Shown: positions 23,531 to 54,582, counted from the first letter of the stretch. The stretch: DNA of 64,000 bases from a bacterium (GCA_963693055.1 OY843751.1:2528001-2592000); one strand, 5' to 3'. The notes: generated from the letters alone by a model not told the origin. Numbers and translations are program-made.

Positions 23531-23719
23531 TTAATTGTTATCTCTGAATATTTCCTGTTTCAATATGATTTTTTTGTCAAGTACTTGAAGACCATATTTG
23601 ACCGTCCAACCTTTGGTTGCTAGCATGTTGTGGGAAAGTAATCTGCTTTCAAGATCTGATGTAAATCCAATATAAATTTTATCATATTTTTCAGAATATA
23701 AAACATATGTAATGAACAT
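23531..23719 (-). pseudogene. Truncated duplicate of the GIY-YIG nuclease gene
   Basis: First ~41 codons identical to 23821..24078, then unrelated sequence. Confidence 0.85.
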
Positions 23720-23767
23720 GGAAACCCCTTGAAATAAAAAAGGACCATCAAATGATGATCCTTATTT

Positions 23768-23820
23768 TAGTAGCGGGGGGCGGATTTGAACCGCCGTTCG
23801 CCAACTGGCGAATATGAGCC
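23768..23820 (-). pseudogene. tRNA-Met 3'-half fragment with a palindrome next to the anticodon
   Basis: GGCTCATA-TTCGCCAGTTGGCGAA-CGGCGGTTCAAATCCGCCCCCCGCTACTA compared with the intact tRNA. Confidence 0.85.
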
Positions 23821-24078
23821 TCACGAATTTTTGTTTTGAGATATATAATTGCGAATAAATTCTCTACCTTTAGCAGATTTTAACTGTTTTTCCCGAATGA
23901 TAGCTTTTTTCTTGGATTCAAATTTTTCATTGTAGACAAGTATCCATGGACGAAATTTGACCGTCCAACCTTTGGTTGCTAGCATGTTGTGGGAAAGTAA
24001 TCTGCTTTCAAGATCTGATGTAAATCCAATATAAATTTTATCATATTTTTCAGAATATAAAACATATGTAATGAACAT
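23821..24078 (-). CDS. Small GIY-YIG nuclease family protein
   Basis: TYVL..KIYIG.TSDLESRL..HN..RPW..E..A..REKQLKS. Confidence 0.92.
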   Translation of the reverse strand: MFITYVLYSEKYDKIYIGFTSDLESRLLSHNMLATKGWTVKFRPWILVYNEKFESKKKAIIREKQLKSAKGREFIRNYISQNKNS

Positions 24079-24126
24079 GGAAACCCCTTGAAATAAAAAA
24101 GGACCATCAAATGATGATCCTTATTT

Positions 24127-24171
24127 TAGTAGCGGGGGGCGGATTTGAACCGCCGACCTTTGGGTTATGAG
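24127..24171 (-). repeat. att site (duplicated tRNA-fMet 3' part)
   Basis: Identical to 54506-54550; identity stops at the anticodon loop/stem. Confidence 0.93.
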
Positions 24172-24224
24172 TTCAAAGGTTTGACGGGTGTAAGTTGTTG
24201 ATAAAAAATAAGTTGTGGTTTTGC

Positions 24225-24253: not shown

Positions 24254-25321
24254 TTAAATTTTTAATTTATCAAACCTTTTTTTAAGATTTTCACGGGCTA
24301 TTTGGGTATAGTGTTTTGTCATTGAACCGGTTTTGTGACGAAGCATTTCCTGGGCAAGTCTTTCGTTTTTATCCGAAATTTCGTTCTCCATGATTCGCAG
24401 ACCAAATGTATGCCGCAGCATGTGTGCCGGTGATTTGATATGTTCAAGTCCGATTTTGTCAAGTGTGCGCCGGAATGTTCTTGAAACGGCATCTTTATTA
24501 TTGTTGAACAATTTTTTGTCCGGGTTGCCTGTCAGTAATTTTGCCCGGATGATCATGCGTTGTATGATCTGGTGCATGGGGATCAGTTCAATTTCACGGT
24601 TCTTGTTTTTTTCCAGTTTGATATATCCTTCTTTCAACAATATGTTTCTTTCCCTTAACTCGAGACATTCTGATCTGCGTAATCCCGCATACCGTAAAAA
24701 AAGGAATATAATTCTTATATTACTTTTAGGCAAGTTTTTATAAAACTCTTTTTCTTTTTCCCGGGGGAGTATATTCGGTACCGGTTTCGTTGCTGAAAAA
24801 AACTCAAAATCATCAAAAGGATTTATCGGAATATATTTTTTCCGTTTTGCCCAGGAGAAAATATCCCTCAGACATGACAGCTCTTTGTTTGCCCCGCGTC
24901 TTGCGCGTTGTACCTTTAAAAAATCATCCTGGTCAATCTTGGCCAGTCTCTGTTCCAGCAGGGAATTACGAAAGCTTTCCAGGCGTTCATCGGTGACTTT
25001 ATCAATAGTGAGATGAGGGCCCAGGTAATTTATTAACAATTTATATGAATGCAGGTTACGTTTTACGCTGATTTCAATAGACCGCTTTTCTTTATAGATG
25101 GAACCGAAATCCTGTAATGTAGGATAAATTTTCTGGGTAGAGGGAACAGCGCCGTTAATGCGCTGCTGTTCGATTTCCAGTTCTTTCTGCTTAACCCAGA
25201 GTTCAACGGATCTTTTGGGAGTGTTGGGTGGAAAGTACTTTCGATATCTTTTCCCTTGAACGTTAAACTGGACCCGATAGGCTGTACCGCTCTGCAATTC
25301 AATCTCTTCAATATAAGCCAT
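24254..25321 (-). CDS. Tyrosine recombinase / phage integrase
   Basis: GLRRSE, HMLRHTF, LRHK..MTKHY catalytic residues; N-terminal arm-binding-like region; next to att. Confidence 0.92.
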   Translation of the reverse strand: MAYIEEIELQSGTAYRVQFNVQGKRYRKYFPPNTPKRSVELWVKQKELEIEQQRINGAVPSTQKIYPTLQDFGSIYKEKRSIEISVKRNLHSYKLLINYLGPHLTIDKVTDERLESFRNSLLEQRLAKIDQDDFLKVQRARRGANKELSCLRDIFSWAKRKKYIPINPFDDFEFFSATKPVPNILPREKEKEFYKNLPKSNIRIIFLFLRYAGLRRSECLELRERNILLKEGYIKLEKNKNREIELIPMHQIIQRMIIRAKLLTGNPDKKLFNNNKDAVSRTFRRTLDKIGLEHIKSPAHMLRHTFGLRIMENEISDKNERLAQEMLRHKTGSMTKHYTQIARENLKKRFDKLKI

Positions 25322-25448
25322 AATAATCTATCCACAAAAAATTTTTCTCCCGAATAAAACTGAGGAGTGGTAAAATTCCTGTCAATAGATTTTATGATAT
25401 TTACTGCCAAAAAACAACCGGTTTCGTTTGTATTTTATACAAACGAAA

Positions 25449-26953
25449 GTTCAATCCCATCTTAGTTAATAGGTCTTTTCCAATTCTTTAAATCCTCGTG
25501 ACGGGTACTTCTCCTTTCTTACGTTGTCTCAATCCCATCATAGTTAATAGGTCTTTTCCAATCGTTGTTTTACCGGTACTGGAATCTTCACAAAAAACTT
25601 TAGTCTCAATCCCATCATAGTTAATAGGTCTTTTCCAATATTTCCGGCAGTGTTCGCTACACAATTGGAGACAATAAACAGTCTCAATCCCATCATAGTT
25701 AATAGGTCTTTTCCAATAAACAGCCGCGCTAAAGGCAAAGTGGAAAACTCGTTCAGTCTCAATCCCATCTTAGTTAATAGGTCTTTTCCAATAATCTGTG
25801 ACAAGTCAGGATATTGGTGTTGGTATCATCAGTCTCAATCCCATCATAGTTAATAGGTCTTTTCCAATATGAAATATGTTGCTAAGATTGTTGATGAAGG
25901 TAACAGTAATAGTCTCAATCCCATCATAGTCAATAGGTCTTTTCCAATTCAAAGATACGCTTGATGTGTTTATGGATGAAGTACGTCTCAATCCCATCAT
26001 AGTCAATAGGTCTTTTCCAATGGTGGAAATGTAACTCATATTACAATCGACTATATTGCTATCCAAGAGTCTCAATCCCATCATAGTCAATAGGTCTTTT
26101 CCAATTGAAAAAGCGATTTGTGGCGCAGAAACCAACCGCAAAATTGTGTCTCAATCCCATCATAGTCAATAGGTCTTTTCCAATAATTTAACGCTAATAA
26201 TTTGTCTAGCGGGGTTTATTTTGTCTCAATCCCATCATAGTTAATAGGTCTTTTCCAATTTTTTATAGACAGCCTACAAGTGGCTGTGAAGACTAAGTCT
26301 CAATCCCATCATAGTTAATAGGTCTTTTCCAATTGGCAGTAAGCCGGCTTGGGTTACACACTGGAACAAAAGTCTCAATCCCATCATAGTTAATAGGTCT
26401 TTTCCAATCATTACAAATGCAAAGCTTGATGACAAGTTCCAAAAGTATGATGAGTCTCAATCCCATCATAGTTAATAGGTCTTTTCCAATTACAATTTTT
26501 GCAGCCGGTGAAAAACAATATGTGTTCGAGTCTCAATCCCATCATAGTTAATAGGTCTTTTCCAATCTGTTGCAAAAACAACAGCACCCTTTGCACTAAC
26601 GTCACTGTCTCAATCCCATCATAGTTAATAGGTCTTTTCCAATTGGCTTGAGCAACTAGCTCTTATAACAAGGTGAAAGATTTCTAGTCTCAATCCCATC
26701 ATAGTTAATAGGTCTTTTCCAATTGCGCTATGGTGACTTGAAAGGTGTAGACAGTTTTCCTGTAGGTCTCAATCCCATCATAGTTAATAGGTCTTTTCCA
26801 ATCAAAACTGGCAGTGCTGACAAAATCGGAAAAATTGCGTCTCAATCCCATCTTTTCTTATAGGTCTTTTCTGATCAAAGAAAGTGATTAATGTGAAAGG
26901 TAAATTAGTGAGAGTGGTGTCTCAATCCCATCTATTCTAATAGGTCCAAATAC
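25449..26953 (-). CRISPR. CRISPR array 1: 20 repeats / 19 spacers (~36-47 nt); repeat ATTGGAAAAGACCTATTAACTATGATGGGATTGAGAC
   Basis: 37-bp repeat counted directly; orientation from the ATTGAGAC 3' handle and the cas operon direction; terminal repeats degenerate. Confidence 0.97.
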
Positions 26954-27042
26954 ATAAAAAGGCGGATTGTATACCCACCTTTAGTTTAAAATTGAATACA
27001 ATGTTTTTAGATAAAAATTGTCAATGAACAAGAATCTTAAAG
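26954..27042 (-). promoter_or_regulatory. Putative CRISPR leader/promoter
   Basis: AT-rich; TTGACA on the minus strand at 27019-27024 followed by an imperfect -10. Confidence 0.4.
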
Positions 27043-28047
27043 CTATTCTTTCATCAGAAAATTAATTTCCTGGGTTAATTTTTCAATGAATTGATCTTTA
27101 TGAGTCACATCATACTTTACACATCGTTTATGTCGTAGATCGAAAGGTATATCATTTGTATCCTGAGTTAACATGATCACTTTTTTCTTTTGAGCATTGG
27201 CAAGACCTAATTCGTAAAAAACATTGGGATTTTTATTTGTCAAATCCGCAATGATGATCGCTGATTTCAATATATTTTCTTCAACTTTATCCATAATACC
27301 ACCTTGAAATATCTCTTCATCAACTCTTACACATTTTAAATTCATACTTTCAGTAATGTTTCTAATCCACGTATAAATTGTATCAAAGTTGGGGTCAAAT
27401 GGCATTATAACAAAGACAAAGTTTCTGTCAAAATTTATTCCATACGGACTGTATTTTATCAATTGTTCAGTGCCCGGTATTGGACGAGCATTGTTGGGAT
27501 CATATTCAGAAAAAAGGTAAAACGCATCCATAGACTGAATTTTTATGGCTGAACTTACAGCACCTAATGACATTATTTTGGTACCGCCTGTCAAATCAAT
27601 AGCTAAATTTTCAATTTCATATTTGTATTGATTTAGCATTTCATCTTTCCATTTAAAAATTTTACTCTCTACATTATTTTGTTCATCACTACTTATGTTG
27701 ATTATTTCGTACTTTAACAATGGATTCACTTTTTTTATCTCGTTTATGAATAAATCAAAGTGATTATTAAAATGATATATTTTTGATATATTCGAAAATC
27801 CGAAAGTAACAAGTTCTGGCTTCATTATGGCAATAAACAATGCTATGTTTTCTATAGTAAAGCCAAAAGGTACAAAAATGGATTTATATTGTGAATTAGT
27901 AATTCTATTTTTAACCAGTTCATTAGTGTTTTCTTTTAATTGTTCAACACTTAATTTGAAAATTCTTTCAAAATAGAATTCAATATTAAAATTTGATTGT
28001 TCCCAAATTTTGAACAAGTTTTGTAATAATTTTCGTCTATTTACCAT
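27043..28047 (-). CDS. CARF domain fused to a nucleoside 2-deoxyribosyltransferase/TIR-like domain (putative cOA-activated effector)
   Basis: CARF signature IDLTGGTKIMS; C-terminal FVIMPF...IIADLTNKNPNVFYELG...IPFDLRH. Confidence 0.8.
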   Translation of the reverse strand: MVNRRKLLQNLFKIWEQSNFNIEFYFERIFKLSVEQLKENTNELVKNRITNSQYKSIFVPFGFTIENIALFIAIMKPELVTFGFSNISKIYHFNNHFDLFINEIKKVNPLLKYEIINISSDEQNNVESKIFKWKDEMLNQYKYEIENLAIDLTGGTKIMSLGAVSSAIKIQSMDAFYLFSEYDPNNARPIPGTEQLIKYSPYGINFDRNFVFVIMPFDPNFDTIYTWIRNITESMNLKCVRVDEEIFQGGIMDKVEENILKSAIIIADLTNKNPNVFYELGLANAQKKKVIMLTQDTNDIPFDLRHKRCVKYDVTHKDQFIEKLTQEINFLMKE

Positions 28048-28048
28048 T

Positions 28049-28963
28049 TTAATTCCTTATATTTCTTGAAAAGTTGTTCAATATTCTATCTTTAATAATT
28101 ACTGATGGATCTTCTCTGTTTATTTTTTTGATTTTCATTTGTTCCAAATCATTGATATCTAGCAATACTATCAATCGAACCTCATTTCTTATTGAATTGG
28201 AAAAGGCTTTCTGCATTAATCCCCAAATAGAGCTTTGATCTGTTGGTTTAAAGCGACATATTAATAAAGTTAATGGTACTTTTGTGAAAATGGTATCCTG
28301 AAAAAAAAGGGTGTATTTGAAGCATTGCATAAAATCATTTGGTTTCGGTTTTTTATTTTTTACTTCAACAATAATATTGTCAAAATAAAATCCTGTTTTT
28401 TCAATTGCATTGAAATGGTCAAATTTTTCATAAAAGCCATCGAAAACAATACCATTAACATTCTCTTGTTTTCTTTTCAAGTCATGTAAGTACAACATAT
28501 CTATAAATGTCAAAACTAACTTTTCGAATGGTTTTCCAAATTTTTTATCACCAAAATCGGAATTCAATATTTGATTAAATAAATATTCAAGTTGTTCATC
28601 GATTCTCACAAGATATTGTTCATATAAATTTATTAAATCATCAGCACTAGTCCGGATCGGTCCCATTATAGTCTTTGTTGATTTACTATTTGTTGTAAAT
28701 AATTGAATTTTTTCTTCAACATCGAGTAATTGTTTGTTGTGATTATCTATACGTATATTGGGATTATTAAAATAATTGAGATTTTCAAATAAAGGTTTAA
28801 GGATTACTGGTGTCCTTAAATCGTACAACGATGAAAGTTTTTTTAGAGATTTCGAGAGCTTTTCATCGAGTTTATCTTTCAAATCTAAAATCTCTCTTTG
28901 AAAATCTTTTTCTAAATCATAAAGTGGGGCTAAATCGTTCTCTCTGTCGTCAATCATATTCAT
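28049..28963 (-). CDS. Helical N-domain + Mrr-like PD-(D/E)xK nuclease
   Basis: GKPFEKLV...FDG...IIVEVKN...QCFKY pattern. Confidence 0.65.
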   Translation of the reverse strand: MNMIDDRENDLAPLYDLEKDFQREILDLKDKLDEKLSKSLKKLSSLYDLRTPVILKPLFENLNYFNNPNIRIDNHNKQLLDVEEKIQLFTTNSKSTKTIMGPIRTSADDLINLYEQYLVRIDEQLEYLFNQILNSDFGDKKFGKPFEKLVLTFIDMLYLHDLKRKQENVNGIVFDGFYEKFDHFNAIEKTGFYFDNIIVEVKNKKPKPNDFMQCFKYTLFFQDTIFTKVPLTLLICRFKPTDQSSIWGLMQKAFSNSIRNEVRLIVLLDINDLEQMKIKKINREDPSVIIKDRILNNFSRNIRN

Positions 28964-28972
28964 ATTTACTTG

Positions 28973-29908
28973 TTATACTATAAATGATAGACCATATCTA
29001 TGAATAGTGTGTACATCTAAAAATAGATCAGGGGTTACGTTTACAACCTGGCCATTTATGGGTTTAGTAAATATTGATCCCTCTGCCACCATTTTGCATT
29101 CTTTTCTTTTTAATTGAACAGAAGTTGAATATGAATGGAACCAGCCTCTTCTATTCAAGATTTTGAATGAATTCAAATGAACAGCCTCATTATTCTTGGG
29201 TGAACAGAGTGATAAGTTGATGTATGTTCCTTTTGGTTTTTGTTCCAATAATTCTTTCCATCTGGCTTGATTGTCAATTTGAGTCATTTTATAAATAAAG
29301 TGCCCATTACCTACACTTCTATCACCACCCAATCCTTCTTCTGCCAAGAGATTTAAACCAACAGTAAATAATTTAATAAATTCACTATCATTGATCTCGA
29401 CAATGAAAAATAATCCTGCACCGTATTTAAAGGAAAAACCGAATGATTCATATAATTGTGTAACTGTCGATATTCGATCAATTGTAACACGTGGACGAAA
29501 AGTTGGAAACATTATCTCGTTTAGGGGGTCGTTAAATTCTCTGGACAATAACGAATTTTCATCATTAATAATTGTTTTGAAATCGTTCAAATCCAAAAAA
29601 TGAACATCTTTTAATTTGGATTGATAAAAGTTTGATGTTCCCCTTGGTGTGGGCAAATAAAATGTATTGCCCATGTATGGAAAAGCAGAGGTCAAGCGGA
29701 AGGGAGGTGTCTCCGAATTTAATTTTTTTATCAATACTTTAATCCAATTGTTATATCTATTACATTCGGGTAGCCTCATCCATTGGCTCACCAATGCGCT
29801 AAACAGGGTGTCGGAGTGAATGATGCCCTTAAACTCATCATCATCTGATAACAAGCTTGATGACAGGGTTAAAGAACGCTTGAAAGAAAGTTTAATAAGC
29901 CAAAACAC
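28973..29908 (-). CDS. csm4: Type III-A RAMP Csm4 (Cas5 group)
   Basis: IHSDTLFSAL, LTSAFPY..YLPTP, RPRVTIDR, GLGGDRSVGNG; GTG 29908 after GGAGG. Confidence 0.92.
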   Translation of the reverse strand: MFWLIKLSFKRSLTLSSSLLSDDDEFKGIIHSDTLFSALVSQWMRLPECNRYNNWIKVLIKKLNSETPPFRLTSAFPYMGNTFYLPTPRGTSNFYQSKLKDVHFLDLNDFKTIINDENSLLSREFNDPLNEIMFPTFRPRVTIDRISTVTQLYESFGFSFKYGAGLFFIVEINDSEFIKLFTVGLNLLAEEGLGGDRSVGNGHFIYKMTQIDNQARWKELLEQKPKGTYINLSLCSPKNNEAVHLNSFKILNRRGWFHSYSTSVQLKRKECKMVAEGSIFTKPINGQVVNVTPDLFLDVHTIHRYGLSFIV

Positions 29909-30785
29909 TGCTGCTTGCCTCCTTGAGAAAATTGATGATTTCATCAATATAGCTGCGCGCTTGTTTGATATCAAAGGATTCACTTTGTAATTCTGTTGAA
30001 TTTTTTTCATCATCCCCGGTGTAATAATAATCGAGTGAACGGGCAAAAAAACTGGAAAAATTAAATTTAATTTTTCCGTATCCACGGGATGAATACCCAC
30101 CTAAAGCTTCATCTTCAATAATACTCATAGCGGCGAGTATATTTTGAAGATCTTTTTTGACTGTTTCAGCGTTAAATCTAATGTCCTTGTTTTCTTTTGA
30201 AATAATTTCTACAGCATAGATCATTTCAAAATTGAAAATACTGTCAGGCAAGACCCTTTCTACGCGACGTGGATTTGCAGACATATCCTTACGATCAATA
30301 CCGGTTTCGGTTTTTACTTCTGTAAATTCTGTTTGTTGTGTAATAATACTTGAATCCAACAAACAATCTCGAACTAATAGAGCAGAAGGCATATTTTCAG
30401 CTTTGGGTTTTTTTACCAGTTTTGATCTATCATCTCCACTCGATCCAAAAATCCTGCATACATCGCAGGTAATAGCAAGGTCGAAATCTTCACAACAGTG
30501 TATGTTTACTTGGTTGCGAAATGTCCCAATGTTACGGTTGTTTTCCAATTTTTCAATTTTCCCATTAACACTACGTGTTCCAACTTTCTCTACAGTACTA
30601 CGCAATTTACCCTTTAGTGAACTACCCGGTATGTAAGGCAAATTACTTGCGCTATCCCTGATAATTGGTAAATCCACACCGCCAATTTGCATAGATTCAT
30701 TTGAACCACCGATATGTAAGCCTGTTTTTATGACGATATTTCCTTGAAAGTATATTTTACCCAATAACAATCTTTTTTGTGTCAT
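29892..30785 (-). CDS. csm3: Type III-A RAMP Csm3 (Cas7 group)
   Basis: TGLHIGG, GGVDLPIIRD (catalytic D), PYIPGSSLKGKLR, CDVCRIFG, LGGYSSRGYG. Confidence 0.95.
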   Translation of the reverse strand: MTQKRLLLGKIYFQGNIVIKTGLHIGGSNESMQIGGVDLPIIRDSASNLPYIPGSSLKGKLRSTVEKVGTRSVNGKIEKLENNRNIGTFRNQVNIHCCEDFDLAITCDVCRIFGSSGDDRSKLVKKPKAENMPSALLVRDCLLDSSIITQQTEFTEVKTETGIDRKDMSANPRRVERVLPDSIFNFEMIYAVEIISKENKDIRFNAETVKKDLQNILAAMSIIEDEALGGYSSRGYGKIKFNFSSFFARSLDYYYTGDDEKNSTELQSESFDIKQARSYIDEIINFLKEASSSVLAY

Positions 30786-30806
30786 TTTAGATACTCCCTG
30801 TTATGA

Positions 30807-31322
30807 TTAATCCCTACCACCATGAAATTTGTGATATGCTACTACAGATTCGACGAATTTGCACAACATTTCATAATCCTCTATAGTATATATAAAATCA
30901 AAAAGTGGATTAATTACTTCAAAAAATGGTGTTACTTCTTTATTCTGTCTGGCCCTTGCGTTTGCAAGTTGTGGTTTAAGTAGAAAAATTTCTGGTTTGA
31001 TATTCCTTTCGAATAATTCTTGTGAATTTTCTTTTAATTTTACAGCTATAGTCCGTGCCTTGATATTTATCATGCTTTCATAAAAGCGCCTTAATTGAGC
31101 AGATTTTAGCCTAATGTCAGGGCTGGCGAGAATTTTTCCTAAAGCATAGCTACAAACCACTAACTTCTCGCCAGTTAAGATTTGTGCTAATGAAACTGCG
31201 CTTTCATTTTTTCCTATAATTTTATCAAGAATATTTCTTGCCTTGTGAAGGTTCCATTCCCTTGATAATCTCTCTTCAATAGGTTCATAATTCATTATGA
31301 TTCCCTCCTGATTTCGTAACAT
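30807..31322 (-). CDS. csm2: Type III-A small subunit Csm2 (Cas11)
   Basis: SAQLRRFY, LLKPQLA, FVESVVAYHKFHGG. Confidence 0.93.
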   Translation of the reverse strand: MLRNQEGIIMNYEPIEERLSREWNLHKARNILDKIIGKNESAVSLAQILTGEKLVVCSYALGKILASPDIRLKSAQLRRFYESMINIKARTIAVKLKENSQELFERNIKPEIFLLKPQLANARARQNKEVTPFFEVINPLFDFIYTIEDYEMLCKFVESVVAYHKFHGGRD

Positions 31323-33636
31323 AAATACACCATGTCAATGGAATATGCATGGATGCAAATTTTTCCAGATCATATATATGAAAATAATTTAAAGACCTTT
31401 CGTTCAAGTCTTTGTTTTGTCTCAACTTTTCTGACATTTTTGTCAATAGCCAAATTATCTGTGGGAGGTATAGCATCCCCTCATTATACCAGGTTTGTAA
31501 TAATTTTAATGCAACCTGAAAAAAGTGTCGGGGTATGCGTGCATTATTCAAATCTAATAAAAGCTGTAGAGGCTCAACGACAAAGTTTTGTATTTCATTG
31601 GTGAATGATTTGGATGTTGAATTGTATTTGTTACTTTTTAAGGCAAGTTCTAACCGTTGGTAATTTTGTACTTGCCTTATCTTAAGCTTTTCGGTTATTG
31701 ATTTTTTCCAATATTGATACTGATCAGTAAAAAAAGGGGTTAAAGATGATTTACGCAAGCAAGAGCCATCTTTGAACAAAGGGCATGTAAAGAATTCCTG
31801 GCGGCATGTCCAGCAAGGCTGCAAATTGTTTTTTGCTTCGAGTAAAGCATTCATAGAGATATGAGCCATTTTATTGATTGGATATTTTGAATGGTGTACA
31901 GTAAAACCTCCACTTATTCCGATATCGATATTATTGCATACGTACTGTTCAAAGGTTTGTGTTATCTCCAGGGAAAGCTGAGCAACATCATTCCAAGCTC
32001 CAATGACAAATAAATCGTCTCCACCAGCATAGATGACTTGTAAATTTTTTTTAGATCCTTCTGGATTTAAAAATGAATAGCTTTTATTGGTTTTACTGCA
32101 TAATGCATTCAGAAATAATTTGAAATAGTAATTCAGATTTCGGGAAAGGTTTGACAGGCTTTCAAAAGTTAAATTATTGCCAAATCCTTTTTGCATGATT
32201 TTTCCCAGGTTGTCAACGTCCATACGCAATCCTGCAACATATTTCACACCTGTTGCAGTTTGAGAAAGCAAATCTATTCCTGCAACACTATCATCTCTAA
32301 GGGAGGCAAGAGCTTCTTCCAGGTACTTTTTATCAGCCAATTCAATTTGAGCTTGAAGAGCAATCTTTTCTTTTTGAATTTCCTTTTTTATTGCATCGGG
32401 CATGTCTTTGATTTTTCTTAAATAAGTTTTACTGTAAACAGGCAGAGTATGCTCAGATAACTCATTTATGATATCAAAAGAGCCTTGATAAATAATGAAT
32501 TTTAGATTACTGTTATCCTCTTTTCCATCACTTAGTTTATAATATTTTTCGTCAATTTGTATTGAATCAGAGCTTTCATTGTCTGTTGCATATATATATT
32601 TGACATTTGGTATCTTGTTGCCTAGTTTTGACAATTTATCACAAAAAGGACATCTTGCTAATCCTGCTTCTTCATCGAGTATGAGGTTTGCCTTTGTATC
32701 GTCTCTGGTACAAATATCACAATGCATAAAATGTGGGTCATTTTTATCTATCCATTCAAACTCGCCTTGTTCAATTAGGCTTTTGAATTTTGCTTGTTTT
32801 TTCTCAAAGATTTTTAATGAAATTTGGTTTAATAACTCATCCAAATTGTTCTCGATTTGAGTTTCCTCACACTCAATAGCATCTATAGACACATATAAAA
32901 TTCCGTTAAATTCATTATATAACCATTTGTTGATTCTGTAATCAATTTCATTAATAAGTTCTTTATAATTTTCAGGTTTACTTGCATAAAAATAAATACT
33001 TCCCCCGCCATTCATAAGCACATTGACTTGGTGAAGATTGAATTTCTCCATAACTGTTTCAATTAAATGCCAAGATAATAATTCAATATAAAATGATCGT
33101 GCCCTTAAATTTTTCAATGCACCGCTGGATGTGATATTATAAATGAAATTTTGTATTCCGGAAAGGTCAACATTGATTAATAAATTTCCATTATGATTAT
33201 GGTGTGTCGCATTGTAATCAATTACAGCTTTAGCGGCTTTGATTTTATATGCATCGTAAATTGAAATATTTTCATTTTGTTGTGCAGGTAGATTCCCTCC
33301 ATACATTTCTAAAAGGAAGAAAAGTTGAGAGCAATTTAATGATTCAAGATATGATTGATCAAATGCCTTTACATTAGTTGCAATGTCCATTATAAATTGC
33401 TGTTTTTCGGTATCAAACATCTGGTCTTGTTTGAGTTGAGGATAATATGGCTCAAATGTTAAACGATATGGAGGTACGTAATAAGGACTGTCTTGATCAT
33501 CTTTAAAACTTACTAGATTAAATATAGATCGCAAATAGTTGGGTGTAGATTGTTCACACCAGCTTTTTATCTCTTCAAGTCCTTGAATAAATGTTGGTTT
33601 TAATATATCATTCAAATCCAAATTAATTACCTCCAT
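31285..33636 (-). CDS. cas10: Cas10/Csm1 lacking the HD nuclease domain, with intact cyclase Palm
   Basis: DLSGIQNFIY, LRARSFY, CDIC/CPFC, MDVDNLG, IYAGGDD; starts close to the post-HD LRSIF motif. Confidence 0.93.
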   Translation of the reverse strand: MEVINLDLNDILKPTFIQGLEEIKSWCEQSTPNYLRSIFNLVSFKDDQDSPYYVPPYRLTFEPYYPQLKQDQMFDTEKQQFIMDIATNVKAFDQSYLESLNCSQLFFLLEMYGGNLPAQQNENISIYDAYKIKAAKAVIDYNATHHNHNGNLLINVDLSGIQNFIYNITSSGALKNLRARSFYIELLSWHLIETVMEKFNLHQVNVLMNGGGSIYFYASKPENYKELINEIDYRINKWLYNEFNGILYVSIDAIECEETQIENNLDELLNQISLKIFEKKQAKFKSLIEQGEFEWIDKNDPHFMHCDICTRDDTKANLILDEEAGLARCPFCDKLSKLGNKIPNVKYIYATDNESSDSIQIDEKYYKLSDGKEDNSNLKFIIYQGSFDIINELSEHTLPVYSKTYLRKIKDMPDAIKKEIQKEKIALQAQIELADKKYLEEALASLRDDSVAGIDLLSQTATGVKYVAGLRMDVDNLGKIMQKGFGNNLTFESLSNLSRNLNYYFKLFLNALCSKTNKSYSFLNPEGSKKNLQVIYAGGDDLFVIGAWNDVAQLSLEITQTFEQYVCNNIDIGISGGFTVHHSKYPINKMAHISMNALLEAKNNLQPCWTCRQEFFTCPLFKDGSCLRKSSLTPFFTDQYQYWKKSITEKLKIRQVQNYQRLELALKSNKYNSTSKSFTNEIQNFVVEPLQLLLDLNNARIPRHFFQVALKLLQTWYNEGMLYLPQIIWLLTKMSEKLRQNKDLNERSLNYFHIYDLEKFASMHIPLTWCIYVTKSGGNHNEL

Positions 33637-33640
33637 ATAG

Positions 33641-34627
33641 TCATTCTGTAATAGTTACTCTTATTTTCCCCAACCCAAAACTTGTCCCTTTGCCGATGTG
33701 GAGGACCTGGCTCTGCAGCAGAAGGGGAGTGAATCCATTTATGTTGCCGGCAAGAAGGATATCGCCGATAAAGCCGCCGATCTCCATTTTTGTGTTTTGC
33801 CGGGAGCTGTACCGGTGCCAGTCCTGCCATTTCAGATGCGGGTCCATAATTGCCACTTCATTTGCCTGGACAAGATAGGGGTGGAAGTGCCAGTCGATTT
33901 CATTTTCCGGAGCGTAGAAATGCGCGAGCTCTAAAAGGCGCCGGAGCATTTTAAACACCAACAGTCGGAAAGAGAAATCCATTATATATTGGTCTTCGTA
34001 TTTTAATCGGGTAGGCGTGAGAAACCGGACTTGAACCTGGTCGTGCTCCGAATCCTCATAGTGCGGATGAGTGGGGATTGCCTGGGCGCAGAGGGATTCA
34101 GTTTCTCCTTTGTAGATCAGTGTTTCGGTAAAAGTGTTTTCTGCCAGGGAATGTTGTTCCGGATTTATCCAATAAACATTATGGAGTTGGAACGGCAATC
34201 GCTTTGATGAAAGTCCCCGTTTGGCCATGAGACTGATGGAGTAAATAATGTATGGATAAAGCGCTCCAATATTACCGAGGAGCGTCAGGGTAAAGCTGAA
34301 CGTATCGCCCTGGGCATACTCGGTTTTTTGATCAAAAGCGTCTATGATGTATGGCCGGGGAGAGGTTGGTAATTTGCTTAAAAAGGGCGGAGGGGTTCCC
34401 TCGACATAAGTCTCAAAAATTTTTGTGTAGGTACACTGGCTCCGGAACAGGCAGGATTGACAGGATTCCTGTTTTTTCTGAATGCAGACAGTCCGTTTTA
34501 ACGCACTGCCAAATGCTCCCCTCAGCATGGATCCCTTAATCCTGGGCAGTGTGCATACCTGTTCGGCCTGAAGAACGAATTTCAGTTTCAAATAGGGAAT
34601 AATAGGAAGACAGTAATCCACGGTCAT
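33641..34627 (-). CDS. cas6: Cas6 crRNA-processing endoribonuclease (Cys-cluster type)
   Basis: GSMLRGAFG, CI..CQSC....C, FLTPTRL, HIGKGTSFGLG glycine-rich loop. Confidence 0.93.
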   Translation of the reverse strand: MTVDYCLPIIPYLKLKFVLQAEQVCTLPRIKGSMLRGAFGSALKRTVCIQKKQESCQSCLFRSQCTYTKIFETYVEGTPPPFLSKLPTSPRPYIIDAFDQKTEYAQGDTFSFTLTLLGNIGALYPYIIYSISLMAKRGLSSKRLPFQLHNVYWINPEQHSLAENTFTETLIYKGETESLCAQAIPTHPHYEDSEHDQVQVRFLTPTRLKYEDQYIMDFSFRLLVFKMLRRLLELAHFYAPENEIDWHFHPYLVQANEVAIMDPHLKWQDWHRYSSRQNTKMEIGGFIGDILLAGNINGFTPLLLQSQVLHIGKGTSFGLGKIRVTITE

Positions 34628-34975
34628 ATCCCTTTTGTAAAAGATAAATGATAGTATTATTCAAGATGATTCAAATATAAAACTGCCCCAAAACAGTTCA
34701 GTTGTCCCACCAGTAACTGTTAAGGATATTCAAAATATAGAACATTTTAAAATATCAAATTCCGCCCATGGCACAATTGTGAGTCCGTGTAATTGTATAT
34801 AAGCATTTTCACAGTAAAGGTCAAGATGAAAATAAAAATTTTTCGAGTTTAGTGGTTTTATTGTGCAAGTGATCAGTATTCGGTTATCAGTTTTCAGAGC
34901 CGCCAGGGGTCCTTTTGTATTCCATGTTTTTGTATAGAGCTGACAGCTATTAGCTGATAGCTAACAGCTTGAAGC

Positions 34976-35008
34976 CAATCCCATCGTATTGATTAGGTCT
35001 ATTTACAG
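34976..35008 (-). repeat. Solitary CRISPR repeat (type B, lacking the last 4 nt)
   Basis: caatcccatcgtattgattaggtctatttacag is identical to array-2 repeats. Confidence 0.9.
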
Positions 35009-35772
35009 AGAAATGCATGGTTCTTTACTATGAGGTAGAGAAGGGTAGCGGCTTTTTCTTCAAAGCTGGGGTACAAATCCCTGTCTCCCAATGACTGACG
35101 GATTTGAGTGATAGCACTCTTGAACCCGTCACCCCGTTCATGTCCAAATACAGAGGAGTTAAAATCGCTTCGCATTTGATCAATAACGGCCATATAGTCT
35201 TTGTATGCCGGGTAGACAACGGATTTTTCCGTTTTACCTTTTTTATCCAGGGATTCATGATCATAATCGTCTAAAAGTTTCAGACCCTCTGCATACAAAT
35301 TTAACCAGTCGTAATCCTTGTTCGATGCTTTTTGCTCTATAGCCCGACTTATAATATGAATTCCATCCTTAAGATGTTGAACTTCTTGTTGTTTCTGTGC
35401 CAGTCTTTTTTCATTGATGGTATACCCTTGTACTAACAATTCTCTCAATCTTTTAGTTGCCCATTGACGGAATTGAGTACCTCGTTGTGACTTTACTCGA
35501 TAACCAACTGATATTATGACATCAAGATTGTAAAAAGCCACAGGTTTATCTGAATTTGCAATATGCATTTTTTGCATATTGCTTTTTTTTTCAAGTTCAT
35601 TTTCTTGAAATATATTATTCAGATGGCGGGAAATCACTGATTGATCTCGTTGAAACAACTGTGTTAATTGCTCCTGATTGAGCCAAACTGTATCCTCATT
35701 AAAACGAACTTCAACAGCAGTTTCGTTATCATTTGTTGTATAGATTTCAATTTTGTTTTCAGTATTATCCAT
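34999..35772 (-). pseudogene. RhuM-family protein fused to Fic/Doc, truncated at the Fic motif
   Basis: YNLDVIISVGYRVKSQRGTQFRQWAT (RhuM); LYPSFEEKAATLLYLIVKNHAF then CRISPR repeat. Confidence 0.88.
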
Positions 35773-35865: not shown

Positions 35866-37296
35866 CAGGGTACCCCCGATTTTTTTATTCGAGGGCCAAA
35901 AATAATTGATTTTTGTCACCGGCATGATTATTACACTTTAATTTTCTGAGCTTTATATTGGGTAAAATGATCCTTAATGCCTTTGCCAGTTTATAATAAA
36001 CAAACCCAATAAACTCGTTTAATTTCCTTCTATACACCAACGGAGCTTGAGATTGATCTAAAATATGTAAACAAATATTATCCAAATGACAATAGATAAA
36101 ACTCATGACATTCCAAAACAGGGCATTAAAATTTTTTAGCGCAACATACCTTTTAAGGCAAATGTCTTCAAGATGATAATCATTTTTTATTTGACGATGT
36201 ACCTCTTCAATTTTCCACCGGTAACCATAGCCTTCCATGGTAATCTCTATGGCCTCACGTTCAGTCTCTGCCGGTATAAAGCTTAAAAACCAGCTTTTGC
36301 CTTTGCCAGGTTCAGTGACTGAAATCAGCCATAATCCGGTGTTCATTGGGCCATCCCCATACTGCTTTGGCAGATATACCTTACGGGCACCGCATTGAAA
36401 ACATCGCTTTATCAGCCTGTTCCGGCGTTTTTTCTGCACGGTAATTTCAGTACTGGGACGGATTTTTTCGGCATATTTCTTTAAATTCTTCTTTACTCCT
36501 TGAACAAATATATCCCGGTACCCGGTTTGCCGTATTATAAAGTGTTGTTTTTGCTTAATCCATTTGTTCATCAGTTTGCTACGATCACCTCCGCGATCAT
36601 AAACAACTATCTGTTCTCCATGAATATGTTCTCGAATCGTGTCCACGGATTCGAGGATTTTCTTGTTCTCTGAAATACCTTTGCCTTCTTCCTGATCCGT
36701 CGCCCAAAGCGTACTCACCAGCGGCATGATGGATGTACCGGTTTTATCAACTCCAATGATATTCAGTTGCCAGTATCCATTCCCTAGTTCTTTGGTACTA
36801 CCATCATAAACACGATCAAGCCCTTCCATCTTTTCCGCATAAGGCTTGATTATATCACTCATATCTGCTATCAAGTATTTCGAATCCGAAAACCTTCTTT
36901 TGTTTATTTTCAGATGACTAATGGTTAATTCTCTGTCAAATCCTGGGCGGCCCAAGTGGCTAGACATTCGTTCTGTTGTCTTTTTTAGGCTCGTCTCTTC
37001 CTTTAGGGTTGATGCGATTTTATTTAAATGTACATGCCCGGAGCAAAGTATCCCATAATGCATGTCTCTGATAAATTTATAGTCCGGTCGGTTGAATTCT
37101 GCTTGATATTTCGCTGTCACTTGATTAAGTTTTACTTGGACTCGTTTTGTGATGTCCATGGGTTGCCTCCTATATTATGGTCTGTCAACTATAATGAGGC
37201 AACCTTTTTTTATTTTTACAAGCTTTTTTTGCTTCTATCTCCATTATTTTTTATTACTTACAGTAATATGATTTGTGATTTTTCGGGGGTGTCCTG
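35866..37296 (-). mobile_element. IS4-superfamily insertion sequence
   Basis: IRs cagggtacccccga / tcgggggtgtcctg; 10-bp TSD tattttgaaa at 35856-35865 and 37297-37306; ggttgcctc...gaggcaacc hairpin covers the RBS. Confidence 0.92.
35885..37159 (-). CDS. DDE transposase (IS4 superfamily)
   Basis: IADMSDI, YDRGGD, YGYRWKIEEVHRQIK. Confidence 0.92.
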   Translation of the reverse strand: MDITKRVQVKLNQVTAKYQAEFNRPDYKFIRDMHYGILCSGHVHLNKIASTLKEETSLKKTTERMSSHLGRPGFDRELTISHLKINKRRFSDSKYLIADMSDIIKPYAEKMEGLDRVYDGSTKELGNGYWQLNIIGVDKTGTSIMPLVSTLWATDQEEGKGISENKKILESVDTIREHIHGEQIVVYDRGGDRSKLMNKWIKQKQHFIIRQTGYRDIFVQGVKKNLKKYAEKIRPSTEITVQKKRRNRLIKRCFQCGARKVYLPKQYGDGPMNTGLWLISVTEPGKGKSWFLSFIPAETEREAIEITMEGYGYRWKIEEVHRQIKNDYHLEDICLKRYVALKNFNALFWNVMSFIYCHLDNICLHILDQSQAPLVYRRKLNEFIGFVYYKLAKALRIILPNIKLRKLKCNNHAGDKNQLFLALE

Positions 37297-37332
37297 TATT
37301 TTGAAAGGGGGAATACATTTTGTGTGAAAAAT

Positions 37333-37674
37333 AATCCCATCATAGTTAATAGGTCTTTCCAGTCCATTATCATGGATAAAATGTCAGGTCGTTCAAAAGG
37401 TTTTGGGTCTCAATCCCATCATAGTTACCAGGTCTTTTCCAATCTTGTTTGAGGGGCTCCTGATCTTGCAAAAACTTATGGTCTCAATCCCATCGTATTG
37501 ATTAGGTCTATTTACAGTAGGCTATTTCGAACAAGACGGCCAGACGCGAGCACAATTGTTGTCTCAATCCCATCGTATTGATTAGGTCTATTTACAGCTA
37601 TTAGATAAAGAGGGTAGTATGAAAAAGAAAGCTGGAATAGTCTCAATCCCATCGTATTGATTAGGTCATTCCAC
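37333..37674 (-). CRISPR. CRISPR array 2: 5 repeats / 4 spacers, hybrid of repeat A and repeat B (CTGTAAATAGACCTAATCAATACGATGGGATTGAGAC)
   Basis: Repeats at 37333 (partial A), 37407 (A), 37481, 37561, 37640 (B). Confidence 0.92.
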
Positions 37675-37861
37675 GTGAGACGTGAAACGTAAGACGGTAA
37701 ACGATCTTTTGACCTTGCGAAAATGTCAAAGAACGGGGGAGTTGTCAGTCATCGGTTATCAGTTTTCAGAACCACCCGGGGGTTCGTTGTATTCCATATT
37801 TCTTGAGCTGAGCGTCAGTCGGTCCCTGAGTAGACCGCCGCCAGGCGGACGTACCGAAGGG

Positions 37862-37894
37862 CAATCCCATCGTATTGATTAGGTCTATTTACAG
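37862..37894 (-). repeat. Second solitary type-B CRISPR repeat
   Basis: Identical 33-mer to 34976-35008. Confidence 0.9.
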
Positions 37895-38262
37895 TCAATC
37901 AGATTGGATATTACATCATAACCGCATTTGTGTCATTTGTTCTCACCAACCTGGGATGGATACTATTCAAAAAGGACAAGACAGAACCGGTTGAAAAAGA
38001 CCATCTTGACCATCCTTGTCAAAAAATTCTGATATTGGAACAGGATTTTAAGAACCACAAAGATGTGGTCAAGAACCGGATTGATTTGAATGAACGTCGG
38101 TTGAACGCACACGCGAAAGACCTGGATGTATTGCGGGAAACCATCGTGAGACAGGAACAGAACAATAACCATCTGAACGAGAAAGTAGATGAAATCAAGG
38201 CCGAGATTAGTAAAATAACAGATTTTTTATACAGTGGTAAATGGAAATCGGTTAAGTCATGA
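37895..38262 (+). CDS. Phage-like TM + coiled-coil protein (holin/hemolysin-like), probably 5'-truncated by the repeat
   Basis: Open frame NQIGYYIITAFVSFVLTNLGWILF starts right at the repeat junction; coiled-coil tail. Confidence 0.5.
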
Positions 38263-46750: not shown

Positions 46751-48421
46751 ATGAAATTACCAGAACCACAAACAAGAACATTTTCTAGTCTAATCTCAGA
46801 AATAGAGAAAGGCCAGATTAAAATCCCGCAGTTCCAAAGAGACTTTGTGTGGACAATTCAAAAGTCTGCTGGGTTAATTGATAGTGTTATTAAAGGTTAT
46901 CCGATAGGCACTTTTATTTTTTGGAAAACGAAGGACAGGCTGCGCTCTGTTAGGGATATAGGAATTCAAGTTTTGCCGGATCCTGAACTGGGTGAATCTG
47001 TAGATTATGTACTTGATGGACAGCAACGATTAACAAGTTTGTATGCTTGCTTGAAAGGGGTAAGCATAAAACGAGAAGATAGCAAGAAGATTGATGACTT
47101 TTCAAAAATATATATAAATTTAGAATCTGATGAAGATGAAAAAATAGTTACAACGGAAGTTGATGAAGAAAAAATCGATCACCATATAAGTATTCTTGAT
47201 TTGCTTACGGGAGATTTCACCGTTTTAGCATCTTATCCTGCTGAATACCATGAAAAATTAAAGCTCTACAAGAATAGGATTGAGAGCTACCAATATTCGA
47301 TTATTCAAGTTAAAGAAGCACCCATTGATATTGCAACAGAAATATTTACAAGGATTAACGTTGGAGGAAAACCCCTTTCCTTATTCGAAATAATGGTTGC
47401 AAAAACATTTGATTACGAAAAGGATTTTGATTTATCTGAGAAGTTCGAACAACTAATTGATAATCTTAAGCCTCACGATTACGAAACAATATCTGATGCT
47501 ACAGTATTGCAAGTTGTTTCAATGATTATTTCTAAAGAATGCAAGCGTCAAGTAATATTGAAGATAGATAAAACTAAGTTTATTGATACCTGGGATAGGG
47601 CTGTTGACTCAATTGAAAGAACGGTTGAATACTTTAAAAGTTACTACAGAATCCCTGTTTCTCAGCTACTTCCATACAATGCATTAATAGTTCCTTTTTC
47701 ATATTTCTTTTTTCATCATAAAGATAAACCTACAGGGGATAAACAAAAATATCTACAAGACTTTTTTTGGCGATGTTCGTTATCAGGTCGTTATTCATCT
47801 TCTGTAGAGAGTAAATTAGCTCAGGATATAAAGAGAATTGAAAATATTCTTGAAGATAAATTGCCGATTTATGATTGGTCAATTGATTCCTCTAAGGATT
47901 TTATTATTGATAATGGCTGGTTTAGTGCGGGAAGGAGCTATATTAAGGCAATTTTATGCATATACGCATATCATCAGCCGAAATCATTTATTGACAACTC
48001 TCTGGTGAACATTAGTAATTACTGGCTAAAACAGGCTAACAGTAAGAACTATCACCACTTTTTTCCTAGGGCGTATCTAAAAAAGCAAGGAGAGGAGGAA
48101 CACTATATTAACCATATATTGAATATCACAATAGTGGATGATTTTTTGAACAAGCGTGAAATAGGTGCAAAAGCACCTTCAAAATACATGAGCCAGTTCA
48201 AAAAGATTAATCCTGAAATAGAGTCCTCAATGAAATCACATCTTATTAATGATTTATATGGTTTTGGTGTTTTGGAGGATGACTATGATTCTTTCTTCGA
48301 AAGTAGAGCAAATTTGCTCAATAAGGAAATAGAAAAACGAATCATAAAGCAAGAAGTTGATAGAAAATCGCAGCCAGATATTCAGGATGATTATGAGGAA
48401 GAACCAACTGTTACAGAATAA
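46751..48421 (+). CDS. Cassette 5: GmrSD-like restriction protein (DUF262 + HNH-like domain)
   Basis: IPQFQRDFVW, LDGQQRLTS, IFTRINVGG; C-terminal HHFFP...N...N. Confidence 0.85.
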   Translation: MKLPEPQTRTFSSLISEIEKGQIKIPQFQRDFVWTIQKSAGLIDSVIKGYPIGTFIFWKTKDRLRSVRDIGIQVLPDPELGESVDYVLDGQQRLTSLYACLKGVSIKREDSKKIDDFSKIYINLESDEDEKIVTTEVDEEKIDHHISILDLLTGDFTVLASYPAEYHEKLKLYKNRIESYQYSIIQVKEAPIDIATEIFTRINVGGKPLSLFEIMVAKTFDYEKDFDLSEKFEQLIDNLKPHDYETISDATVLQVVSMIISKECKRQVILKIDKTKFIDTWDRAVDSIERTVEYFKSYYRIPVSQLLPYNALIVPFSYFFFHHKDKPTGDKQKYLQDFFWRCSLSGRYSSSVESKLAQDIKRIENILEDKLPIYDWSIDSSKDFIIDNGWFSAGRSYIKAILCIYAYHQPKSFIDNSLVNISNYWLKQANSKNYHHFFPRAYLKKQGEEEHYINHILNITIVDDFLNKREIGAKAPSKYMSQFKKINPEIESSMKSHLINDLYGFGVLEDDYDSFFESRANLLNKEIEKRIIKQEVDRKSQPDIQDDYEEEPTVTE

Positions 48422-48693: not shown

Positions 48694-50360
48694 ATGGCTA
48701 AAGTGGATGAATTTCTGTTATCACTGCATGCAAAAGAAATCATTACCAGTTTGCGGTCTATGAAAACGGCAAATAAAAAGTCATAACCATCCGGGATGAC
48801 GCGCTGGTGCGCGGATTAAAGAATATGGGAGCTGAAAAAGGACTGCGTTTTCTGGACAATATCAATACGTGGTTACGGGCGGTCAATACCATGCTCAATC
48901 CGGAATTTATACTGACCAATTTTGAGCGGGACTTGCAGACCGCCCTGATCAACATATCCGGTGAACAAGTTAAAGGACTGAAACGTAAAGTTGTTAAAGA
49001 CATTCCCAAAGCCATGAAAGGGATCATGTCCGAACTGCGGGGCGAAGGAGAAGGAGAGTGGGCAGACCATTTTCAGTCTTTTAAAGCTGAAGGCGCGAAA
49101 ACCGGCTGGTATGACAATACATCATTGGAAGAAAAACAGAAACAGTTTGAAAAGAAAATCCGGTTTTACAGCAAAGGCAGCAAGTGGGCCCAGATGGCCA
49201 AAGCCACAACGGATTTTATCTGGGATTTGAACGAGACTGTTGAAAACGCCGTCCGTCTGGCCGCTTACAAGAACGCCATTGATGCCGGGTACACCCGGAA
49301 GCAGGCCGCCAATCTGGCCAAAAACCTGACCGTCAATTTTAACAAAAAAGGCGAAATTGGTGCTGCACTTAATAGTTGGTATCTTTTCAGTAATGCCGGA
49401 ATCCAGGGCGGCGCTCGCCTGGTCACTGCTTTAAAGAGCCCTAAAGTACAAAAACTGGCCGTCGGACTGGTAGCGTTCAGCTTTTTACTGGATATGTATA
49501 ACCGCTGGTATGATGAAGACGAATATGAGAAAATCCCGGAATACATCCGCGACACCAATTACGTGCTCATGATGCCTAATGGCAAATATCTCATGATCAA
49601 ACTGCCCTATGGATACAATGTGTTTAACGTCATGGGCAATGCCTTTGCAGAAGTTTATGATATGATGGGTGAAAAACGGACCACATCCCGGGAGTTGCTG
49701 CACCAGGGCGGTCGTATTATGAGTAATTTGGTTGACGCTTTTAATCCACTGGGAAACAGCGGTTCAGTGATACAGTTAATCATGCCTACAATATTCGATC
49801 CTTTAGCCCAGATCGGGGAGAACAAGAACTTTTTTGGCGATCCTATCAGAAAAGACCAACCGGCTTATGGTACCAAAGTACCGGAAAGTCAATTGTATTT
49901 CAAGGGTGTAAATCCCTTAACCCGGGCTTTTACGGATTGGTTAAACCGCGCCTTTGGCGGTTCCGAGGTGAAACAAAGCAGCAAATATACAGATATTAAT
50001 CCTGAAAATATCGATCATTTGATTGAATATATTGGCGGTGGTTTGGGCCGCATGCTGGCAAACACTATAACAACCGGTATGTCCCTAATCAAGGAAAGCA
50101 AACTGCCGGACCTTAACAAAATCCCCTTTGTCCGCAAGGTGGTAGGAGAAACAACGGACTGGACAGAAACACAGAAACTGTACGGCATGTTGGAGGAAGC
50201 AGGTCGTACCGAATACACAGAAACCGAAAAGGAGCAATTTTACAACGATTTGGCCGCGGCTTTTGAAAATGGGTTGATCGACAAGACACAATATCGTCGA
50301 GTCAGGAGTATGTTCAATAACGCCCAGGCCAAACTGCAGCAATCCCTACAGCCGCAATAA
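48694..50360 (+). pseudogene. C-terminal remnant of a large polyvalent virion protein (LPD38-like)
   Basis: ENAVRLAAY, AKNLTVNFNKKG, YLFSNAGIQG, IKLPYGY, NKNFFGDPI, INPENIDHL; in-frame TAA at 48774 upstream of ORF 48807..50360. Confidence 0.75.
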
Positions 50361-54481: not shown

Positions 54482-54508
54482 GTTCTTGTTTTTTAAGGCT
54501 TTAAGTAG

Positions 54509-54582
<74 letters not shown>

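Follow-up and report, generated by a model that had tools for sequence, protein, structure and literature searches.

Comparison with described type III systems

Csm5 is treated as necessary for CRISPR RNA (crRNA) maturation and tight target binding in type III-A systems, according to the available portions of PMC5389561 and PMC10289348. As an example, deletion of csm5 in S. epidermidis is described there to leave untrimmed crRNA intermediates (PMC5389561), and Csm5 is described to stop filament extension and to help target binding (PMC10289348). In this study we analysed a csm locus without csm5, located in a stretch of 64,000 nucleotides from a bacterial genome (GCA_963693055.1 OY843751.1:2528001-2592000), hereafter the window. 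The window system shares its subunits, gene order, GGDD and ATP-site residues and an 8-nucleotide tag with the type III-A Csm complexes of L. lactis (9ash/6xn3), S. thermophilus (6ifn), S. epidermidis (7uzw) and T. onnurineus (6mur). It differs from these canonical complexes in having neither Csm5 nor an HD domain, in an extra cysteine cluster and a methionine in place of the Palm1 tyrosine of Cas10, and in a loop of Csm3, whereas Csm6/Csx1 is replaced by a fixed pair consisting of a nuclease and a protein with CARF and NDT/TIR-like domains. The system is expected to work like III-A yet is without Csm5, and it is filed here as a III-A variant. Our preferred reading, to which we assign a probability of roughly 0.58, is that of a conserved III-A variant where Cas10, Csm2, Csm3 and Csm4 alone would assemble on a crRNA predicted to be cut by Cas6 and would signal, likely through cyclic tetra-adenylate (cA4), to a co-inherited cassette of a CARF-glycohydrolase and a FokI-like DNase.

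Among other described systems, III-A2 likewise has a reduced subunit set and keeps the cyclase and an active Cas7, but it is without Cas11 whereas the window has Csm2. Types III-F, III-G and III-H combine an inactive Palm with an active HD domain (for III-F, the available portion of PMC11229360 gives HD as present and the cyclase as absent). The clade to which the window locus belongs shows the opposite arrangement, as GGDD was found in 40/40 and HD in 0/40 of its Cas10 sequences. Our literature search on Csm5-less III-A returned canonical systems only and nothing on this clade, with the 2020 CARF and 2023 Cas10 surveys lying outside that search.

A conserved clade without csm5

A total of 160 loci were obtained from genome and metagenome scans. 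In the Cas10 search 22 clusters at 37-46% identity scored at least 514 bits, the next matches scoring 242. The clade was observed to be monophyletic with a support of 100 in FastTree (64 rows) and 100/100 in IQ-TREE (24 rows), and the branch joining the sister group is weak in the latter tree (78/99). The clade records carry titles from Nitrospirota, Thermodesulfobacteriota, Planctomycetota and Spirochaetota, which together with the phylum of the window gives five phyla. Its members are rare in the phyla sampled. Among 167 genomes of the window's own phylum a clade-level Cas10 score was found in the window's genome (G000) alone, full-length matches to the CARF protein in the sampled phyla amounted to 2/401 and 1/401, all at loci already known, and a genome scan with a single sequence gave no match. 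No clade member was found in viral_contigs and none at full length in plasmids.

The gene that follows csm4 belongs to the 304-residue nuclease family in all fourteen distinct clade loci that are readable there (the window and 13 others). The duplicates L094, L091 and L001 were removed from this count, L089 was excluded as it looks like an assembly artefact with an inverted duplication, and eleven of the fourteen also built the profile. The CARF gene comes next after the nuclease in the 12/12 loci that extend far enough. In the outgroup, 94 of the 100 loci with an open reading frame (ORF) after csm4 match Csm5 at this position, and among the loci fetched the nuclease family was found only in those without Csm5. 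The same layout was observed at 33-46% Cas10 identity among clade members, and dN/dS ranges from 0.01 to 0.34 for all measurable genes in two pairs of relatives. A sequence-only reading of the window had proposed a reduced subtype that relies on cyclic oligoadenylate (cOA) output. Because a single Cas10 clade spans five phyla with a shared layout and with the csm5 slot consistently filled by a different gene, the locus is best read as belonging to a reduced III-A lineage that has been conserved, rather than as a product of decay, and its dependence on cOA output is likely.

The genome is a single 6.5-Mb contig rated 100% complete, and no csm5 was found in it: matching of RAMP proteins returned csm3 only, while TIGR01899 and a Csm5 profile built from the post-csm4 genes of 100 relatives matched only a short csm3 motif. 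A six-frame search of 20 clade loci gave no Csm5 and recovered the positive controls L014 and L205 at 155 and 222 bits. The genomes of seven relatives, which are incomplete, were also searched; csm5 above cut-off is absent from six, and in the seventh (G173) it lies on another contig beside its own csm3 and cas10. Supply of csm5 in trans was rejected, since the complete genome is without csm5 and the G173 copy is part of another locus, where a cas10 and a csm3 accompany it.

These searches bear on the possibility that the locus is a decayed, prophage-borne III-A system with csm5 lost or borrowed in trans, a reading that we find hardly credible. The prophage remnant around the locus, the missing cognate cas1 and cas2, the degenerate leader-side repeats and the csm5 on another G173 contig would all suit such decay. 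It is contradicted by the complete and incomplete genomes that show no csm5, by the placement of the G173 copy and by the recurrence of the layout under purifying selection at 33-46% Cas10 identity. The sequence-only reading had named three grounds for its refutation: a compatible csm5 elsewhere in the genome, close relatives that all carry csm5 (simple decay), or no cOA synthesis. No csm5 was found in the genome, the relatives also lack it at the locus (14/14 readable), and the residues for cyclase activity are intact.

Two other absences that the sequence-only reading took as defining did not hold up as such. The HD domain is present in 65% of III-A systems and absent in 35% according to the available portion of PMC11229360, and the nearest Csm5-bearing group is HD-less as well (0/17). 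HD loss was therefore rejected as a defining trait of the clade, as it is common in III-A. That csm5, cas1 and cas2 are absent from the island was correctly noted; the one cas1 and the one cas2 of the genome belong to a type I-B-like locus at a distance of 1.06 Mb, the repeat of which is a different one. Since some relatives do carry adaptation genes (cas1 and cas2 in L087; cas2 in L009 and L011), cas1/cas2 loss was also rejected as a defining trait, and the missing adaptation genes are a local condition.

In the sister group, one locus is rearranged (L036:7413-14931), with csm3, a Csm5-like gene, cas10, csm4 and CARF, and csm2 was unseen in the ORF pass.

Conserved features of Cas10 and Csm3

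The window Cas10 scores 405 bits against TIGR02578 (cut-off 170). The alignment begins only at position 91 of the profile, and the protein accordingly has no HD region. LRSIF is found some 35 residues after the start, and no HD motif is present. GGDD is located at residues 538-541 and the canonical four-cysteine motif at 306-332, and a further cluster of C608, C611, C618 and C626 is found downstream of Palm2. This extra cluster is present in 40/40 clade Cas10 (some of them duplicates), in 2/17 sister rows, which represent one gene with a different spacing, and in at most 1/129 others. The start just before LRSIF, the retained GGDD and the cysteine insertion after Palm2 had all been described accurately from the sequence.

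The alignment was mapped on L. lactis Csm1, for which residue roles were taken from the available portion of PMC11417356. Residues D157, S181, D473, D475, S498, Y536 and GGDD were found to be invariant in 40/40 clade Cas10. The cA6-specific Tyr/Thr pair given in that portion is absent from the clade Cas10 (cA6, cyclic hexa-adenylate), and cA4 is therefore predicted as the Cas10 product.

Csm2, Csm3 and Csm4 all score above the NCBIfam cut-offs. The catalytic aspartate of Csm3 is kept in 13/16 clade loci and corresponds to D38 in the window, as had been reported. Because this RNase residue is retained, the label of signalling-only that the sequence-only reading gave to the window copy is overstated; it fits only a subclade of 3/16 loci. 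In these three (L097, L099 and L101) the aspartate is lost, but the cyclase is retained, as are the effector genes wherever they can be read, which makes this subclade a candidate sensor-only type III. We noticed a loop of the RNIGTxRN type in 15/16 clade Csm3, and a similar pattern in only 1/125 outgroup Csm3. Four traits thus appear to be specific to the clade: the missing csm5, the Cas10 cysteine cluster, the Csm3 RNIGTxRN loop and the effector pair.

The effector pair

The 334-residue effector consists of a helical N-terminus, a CARF domain (54-200) and an NDT/TIR-like Rossmannoid domain (207-334) in a model with a predicted local distance difference test (pLDDT) score of 92. Its family holds about 54 near-full-length clusters, and both DxxGGxK of the CARF domain and E279 are invariant in 54/54 homologues. 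Structure comparison places the CARF domain closest to cA4 binders, with Z scores of 17.5 for T. thermophilus Csm6 and 15.0 for Cam1. For the C-terminal domain (208-334) MilB is nearest (Z 15.7, root-mean-square deviation 2.3), followed by NDT and TIR at 14.5 each. The MilB/DNPH1/NDT group gives the best fold for this domain at 10-20% identity, with the difference that the window protein is fused to CARF. A weak PF05014 match was observed over the ELG motif (23.4 bits, below the 28.8 cut-off).

Among known effectors it can be compared with Cat1, a TIR-CARF NADase (PMC12162218, available portion; PDB 9mud) in which a CARF sensor is likewise combined with a Rossmannoid domain of the TIR type that has a conserved glutamate. 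The order in Cat1 is reversed, as its 258 residues hold TIR and then CARF. The window effector gave no Cat1 match by profile search, and its structural Z of 12.6 lies below those of MilB and NDT. A partner nuclease is not described in that portion of PMC12162218. A further TIR-bearing arrangement, TIR-SAVED-Crn4, is that of TSR1 (10.64898/2026.09.16.751991, available portion). No description of the CARF-then-NDT/TIR-like hydrolase architecture was found in the literature searched, which did not extend to the 2020 CARF classification.

The 304-residue nuclease is modelled (pLDDT 92) as an N-terminal helical bundle (1-125) and a FokI/BspD6I-like PD-(D/E)xK domain, its fold matches (VIA) being BspD6I (Z 11.9), FokI (Z 11.4) and NucC (Z 8.6). 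The D...ExK triad is present, and D175, E200, K202 and Q213 are invariant in 31/31 homologues; the family comprises 32 clusters at E<=1e-30. FokI, BspD6I, NucC and Can1/Can2/Card1 have the PD-(D/E)xK fold in common with it, but the window nuclease has neither a recognition domain nor a CARF in the same chain and carries the helical bundle instead. It gave no match in Pfam, NCBIfam or PADLOC, none in Foldseek at E<=0.001 and only coiled-coil noise in a sequence search of the PDB. Atlas searches returned leads below 0.9 only (Mrr_cat-like and NDT-like). The absence of a PADLOC NucC match can be compared with the true NucC of locus L010, which scores 1.7e-99. A diverged Csm5 was rejected as its identity (hhalign probability 0.2%; Csm5 match in 0/10 relatives), and an RRM/RAMP fold for the gene in the csm5 slot is ruled out by the confident model of a helical bundle and nuclease. 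One homologue of 431 residues (P0256) has an N-terminal helical domain that is apparently duplicated.

The position of the nuclease gene suggests that its product could be a subunit of the Csm complex, where the helical bundle would cap the Csm3 filament and the nuclease domain would replace HD on target binding. This is unlikely in our view. The gene does lie exactly in the csm5 slot (14/14), only in Csm5-less loci among those fetched, and locus L100 retains just the helical part. However, there is no Csm5 homology by hhalign, the top 50 folds include no Cas7 or Cas11, and the helical domain was observed to be the most variable part of the protein (median identity 15%, and 29% for L009 against L087, two loci with core proteins at 90-96% identity), unlike what is expected of a docking subunit.

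A relay between the two effectors can also be envisaged, where the cA4-activated NDT/TIR-like domain would make a second small molecule (ADP-ribose or a base-free nucleotide species) that activates the nuclease without contact. In distant relatives the nuclease domain is preceded by Macro, receiver, proteasome or Mrr domains, and these relatives match the candidate defence protein PDC-M36A of PADLOC; the Macro, receiver and proteasome fusions and this match indicate a family that is likely sensor-gated, and the nuclease and CARF genes travel together. We nevertheless think such a relay improbable, as, generic bundles apart, none of the ligand sensors listed is similar to the helical bundle, and the poor conservation of the bundle argues against a small-molecule pocket.

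Our comparisons between relatives show that the two effector genes are exchanged against a stable core. Loci L010 and L088 share 94-99% identity in Cas10 and Csm2-4, but only 74% in the nuclease and 77% in the CARF protein. The reverse was observed for L008 and L010 (core 79-96%; nuclease 97% and CARF 98%), and in L009 and L087 the core is 90-96% identical with the nuclease at 43% and CARF at 60%. DNA identity steps abruptly at the csm4-nuclease junction in all three comparisons. Over 55 pairs, the identity of the nuclease correlates with that of the core genes at a Spearman coefficient of 0.07-0.23, and the core genes among themselves at 0.81-0.92. We read the nuclease as a putative cassette partner of the CARF protein rather than a Csm5 substitute because the two are swapped as one block, where a subunit acting as the cap should vary along with Csm3 and Csm2.

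Proposed mechanism and its weighing

In the preferred reading of a III-A variant with a co-inherited effector cassette, binding of target RNA would activate the Cas10 cyclase and Csm3 would cut the RNA. The Cas10 product, presumably cA4, would bind the CARF dimer, and the C-terminal domain would then hydrolyse an N-glycosidic bond in NAD+ or a nucleotide and lead to cell arrest. The CARF protein might gate the sensor-less nuclease, most likely with the variable helical regions of the two in direct contact, and the nuclease would supply the DNA cutting lost with the HD domain. Without Csm5 the crRNA's 3' end would be left untrimmed or be held by Cas6, and such a crRNA, perhaps Cas6-bound, and the conserved Csm3 loop are candidates for ending the filament. 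An engineered complex of Cas10, Csm3 and Csm4 reportedly keeps its activity in vitro.

We consider tentatively, as possible rather than probable, a more far-reaching form of this proposal. The natural four-subunit Csm would here constitute a distinct lineage at the level of a subtype, in which the altered Cas10 produces the messenger for a new two-component effector: a CARF-glycohydrolase acting on NAD+ or nucleotides would in addition license a separate FokI-like DNase. Under pressure from phages the pair would pass between genomes as an allelic cassette, and loss of Csm3 cleavage would have turned one subclade into a pure RNA sensor.

Several observations weigh against the cA4-driven cassette. 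The Palm1 tyrosine that stacks on adenine (Y304 in L. lactis) is methionine in 28/40 clade Cas10 and aromatic in 6/40, whereas the position is aromatic in 133/146 Cas10 outside the clade; in the window Met208 replaces this tyrosine, which stacks on the second ATP, and the product or its yield could therefore differ. The near ties of MilB (15.7), NDT (14.5) and TIR (14.5) mean that the fold does not fix the substrate. The correlation between nuclease and CARF identities is weak (0.27; 55 pairs), and at depth CARF identity follows that of the core (0.67-0.80). The three exchange comparisons amount to two independent events, as L008, L010 and L088 share one, and neighbouring genes can be swapped jointly without interacting. 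In locus L100 the nuclease is a helical stub of 102 residues (L100:3188-3496) with a clean stop before an intact CARF gene, which shows the nuclease to be dispensable or in decay there and the CARF protein to be capable of persisting when the nuclease domain is gone. Furthermore, no spacer target was found, whether as a self-target or as a match in the phage collection. Finally, loss of csm5 in canonical III-A blocks crRNA maturation and weakens target binding (PMC5389561 and PMC10289348, available portions).

The clade-wide loss of the Palm1 tyrosine, together with the new four-cysteine insertion after Palm2, might also mean that the clade Cas10 makes a messenger other than cA4 which is read by a dedicated CARF family. 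In line with this, the CARF family is fixed to the clade where type III effectors normally shuffle (PMC12669027). Such a messenger is quite improbable, however, as the remaining ATP-site residues are all canonical, leucine occurs at the Palm1 site in 10/129 other Cas10 and the match of the CARF fold is to cA4 binders.

A lineage from which Csm5 has been absent for a long time offers a natural test of the cap function, and its smaller complex could serve as a scaffold to sense or knock down RNA. The two effectors contribute a CARF-then-NDT/TIR-like architecture and a sensor-less nuclease with a testable activation route, and the exchange of the pair as a block points to a site of the phage arms race.

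The operon, its carrying element and the CRISPR arrays

The order cas6-cas10-csm2-csm3-csm4 is formed by five minus-strand ORFs without internal stops (Table 1), which agrees with their earlier description as intact. That description covered a range that excludes the CRISPR arrays and both effector genes (27043-28963), the feature that most sets this system apart. For cas10, a TTG start at 33621 with a better ribosome-binding site gives the public call of 778 residues.

Table 1. Positions of the Csm operon, its effector genes, the arrays and the ends of the carrying element in the window.
Feature	Position	Strand	Evidence
cas6, crRNA processing endoribonuclease, 328 residues	33641..34627	-	PF10040 4e-17; PADLOC Cas6 1.6e-87
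cas10/csm1 without HD, 783 residues	31285..33636	-	TIGR02578; Palm1/Palm2 catalytic residues intact
csm2 (Cas11 small subunit)	30807..31295	-	TIGR01870 above cut-off
csm3, catalytic D38, clade-specific RNIGTxRN loop	29892..30785	-	sole Cas7-family gene of genome
csm4 (Cas5)	28973..29908	-	TIGR01903 7e-61
304-residue nuclease occupying the csm5 slot, without family name	28049..28963	-	fold model, invariant residues
334-residue effector, CARF + NDT/TIR-like domain	27043..28047	-	fold model, invariant E279
CRISPR array 1, 20 repeats of 37 nucleotides, 19 spacers of 36-47 nucleotides	25448..26956	-	
CRISPR array 2, 6 repeat copies, 4 normal spacers and a 181-nucleotide insert	37328..37895	-	
Single variant repeat and partial copy of array-borne insert, just upstream of cas6 promoter region	34860..35009	-	
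Tyrosine integrase of carrying element	24254..25321	-	PF00589, phrog_1
Attachment (att) site (tRNA-Met 3' copy), left end of 30-kb element	24127..24176	n/a	
tRNA-Met and right att site	54506..54582	-	

On the strand that carries the genes, the repeats terminate in the 8-nucleotide tag, and they form a hairpin of 7 bp. The two leader-proximal repeats of array 1 are degenerate, and array 2 is interrupted by an IS4-family transposase (35885-37159). Both this IS4 and a RhuM/Fic gene are situated between repeat copies in the window. A third array of the same repeat family lies 230 kb away without cas genes (G000:C1:2797325-2799030). This orphan array and array 2 (37677-37857) hold inserts of 155-197 nucleotides flanked by partly duplicated variant repeats, with four near-identical copies in the orphan array and a partial one upstream of cas6 (34860-34971). 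These inserts have the look of small repetitive elements with CRISPR repeats as their target. The arrays of relatives (L010:16769-20441, L088:11011-11377, L096:2084-2295 and L011:17484-18115) also contain inserts of 174-244 nucleotides with a 25-nucleotide partial repeat duplication, as well as whole genes between repeats: a cyclase of a CBASS (antiphage signalling by cyclic oligonucleotides) with NucC in L010, and cas2 in L011.

The carrying element, 30 kb long and bounded by the tRNA-Met att sites, is what remains of a prophage and holds an integrase and phage-like genes. In a genome of the same genus (G085) the flanks are present and the element is absent, leaving an empty site. The sequence-only reading had described the neighbouring phage genes as broken, which holds in part: the RhuM gene has a truncated Fic domain, and the gene at 48807-50360 (+) is a C-terminal remnant that matches only the last 500 or so residues of a giant DarB-like phage protein (profiles of 2,800-3,900 residues). 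A prophage protein of 556 residues (46751-48421, +) matches the candidate defence families PDC-M55C (1e-60) and HEC-05. Beside the att site (23571-24176) and in L217:18056-19341, tandem repeats of about 225 nucleotides with tRNA-Met 3' fragments surround small ORFs, which we take to be GIY-YIG-like, and further copies of these repeats are found in G085.

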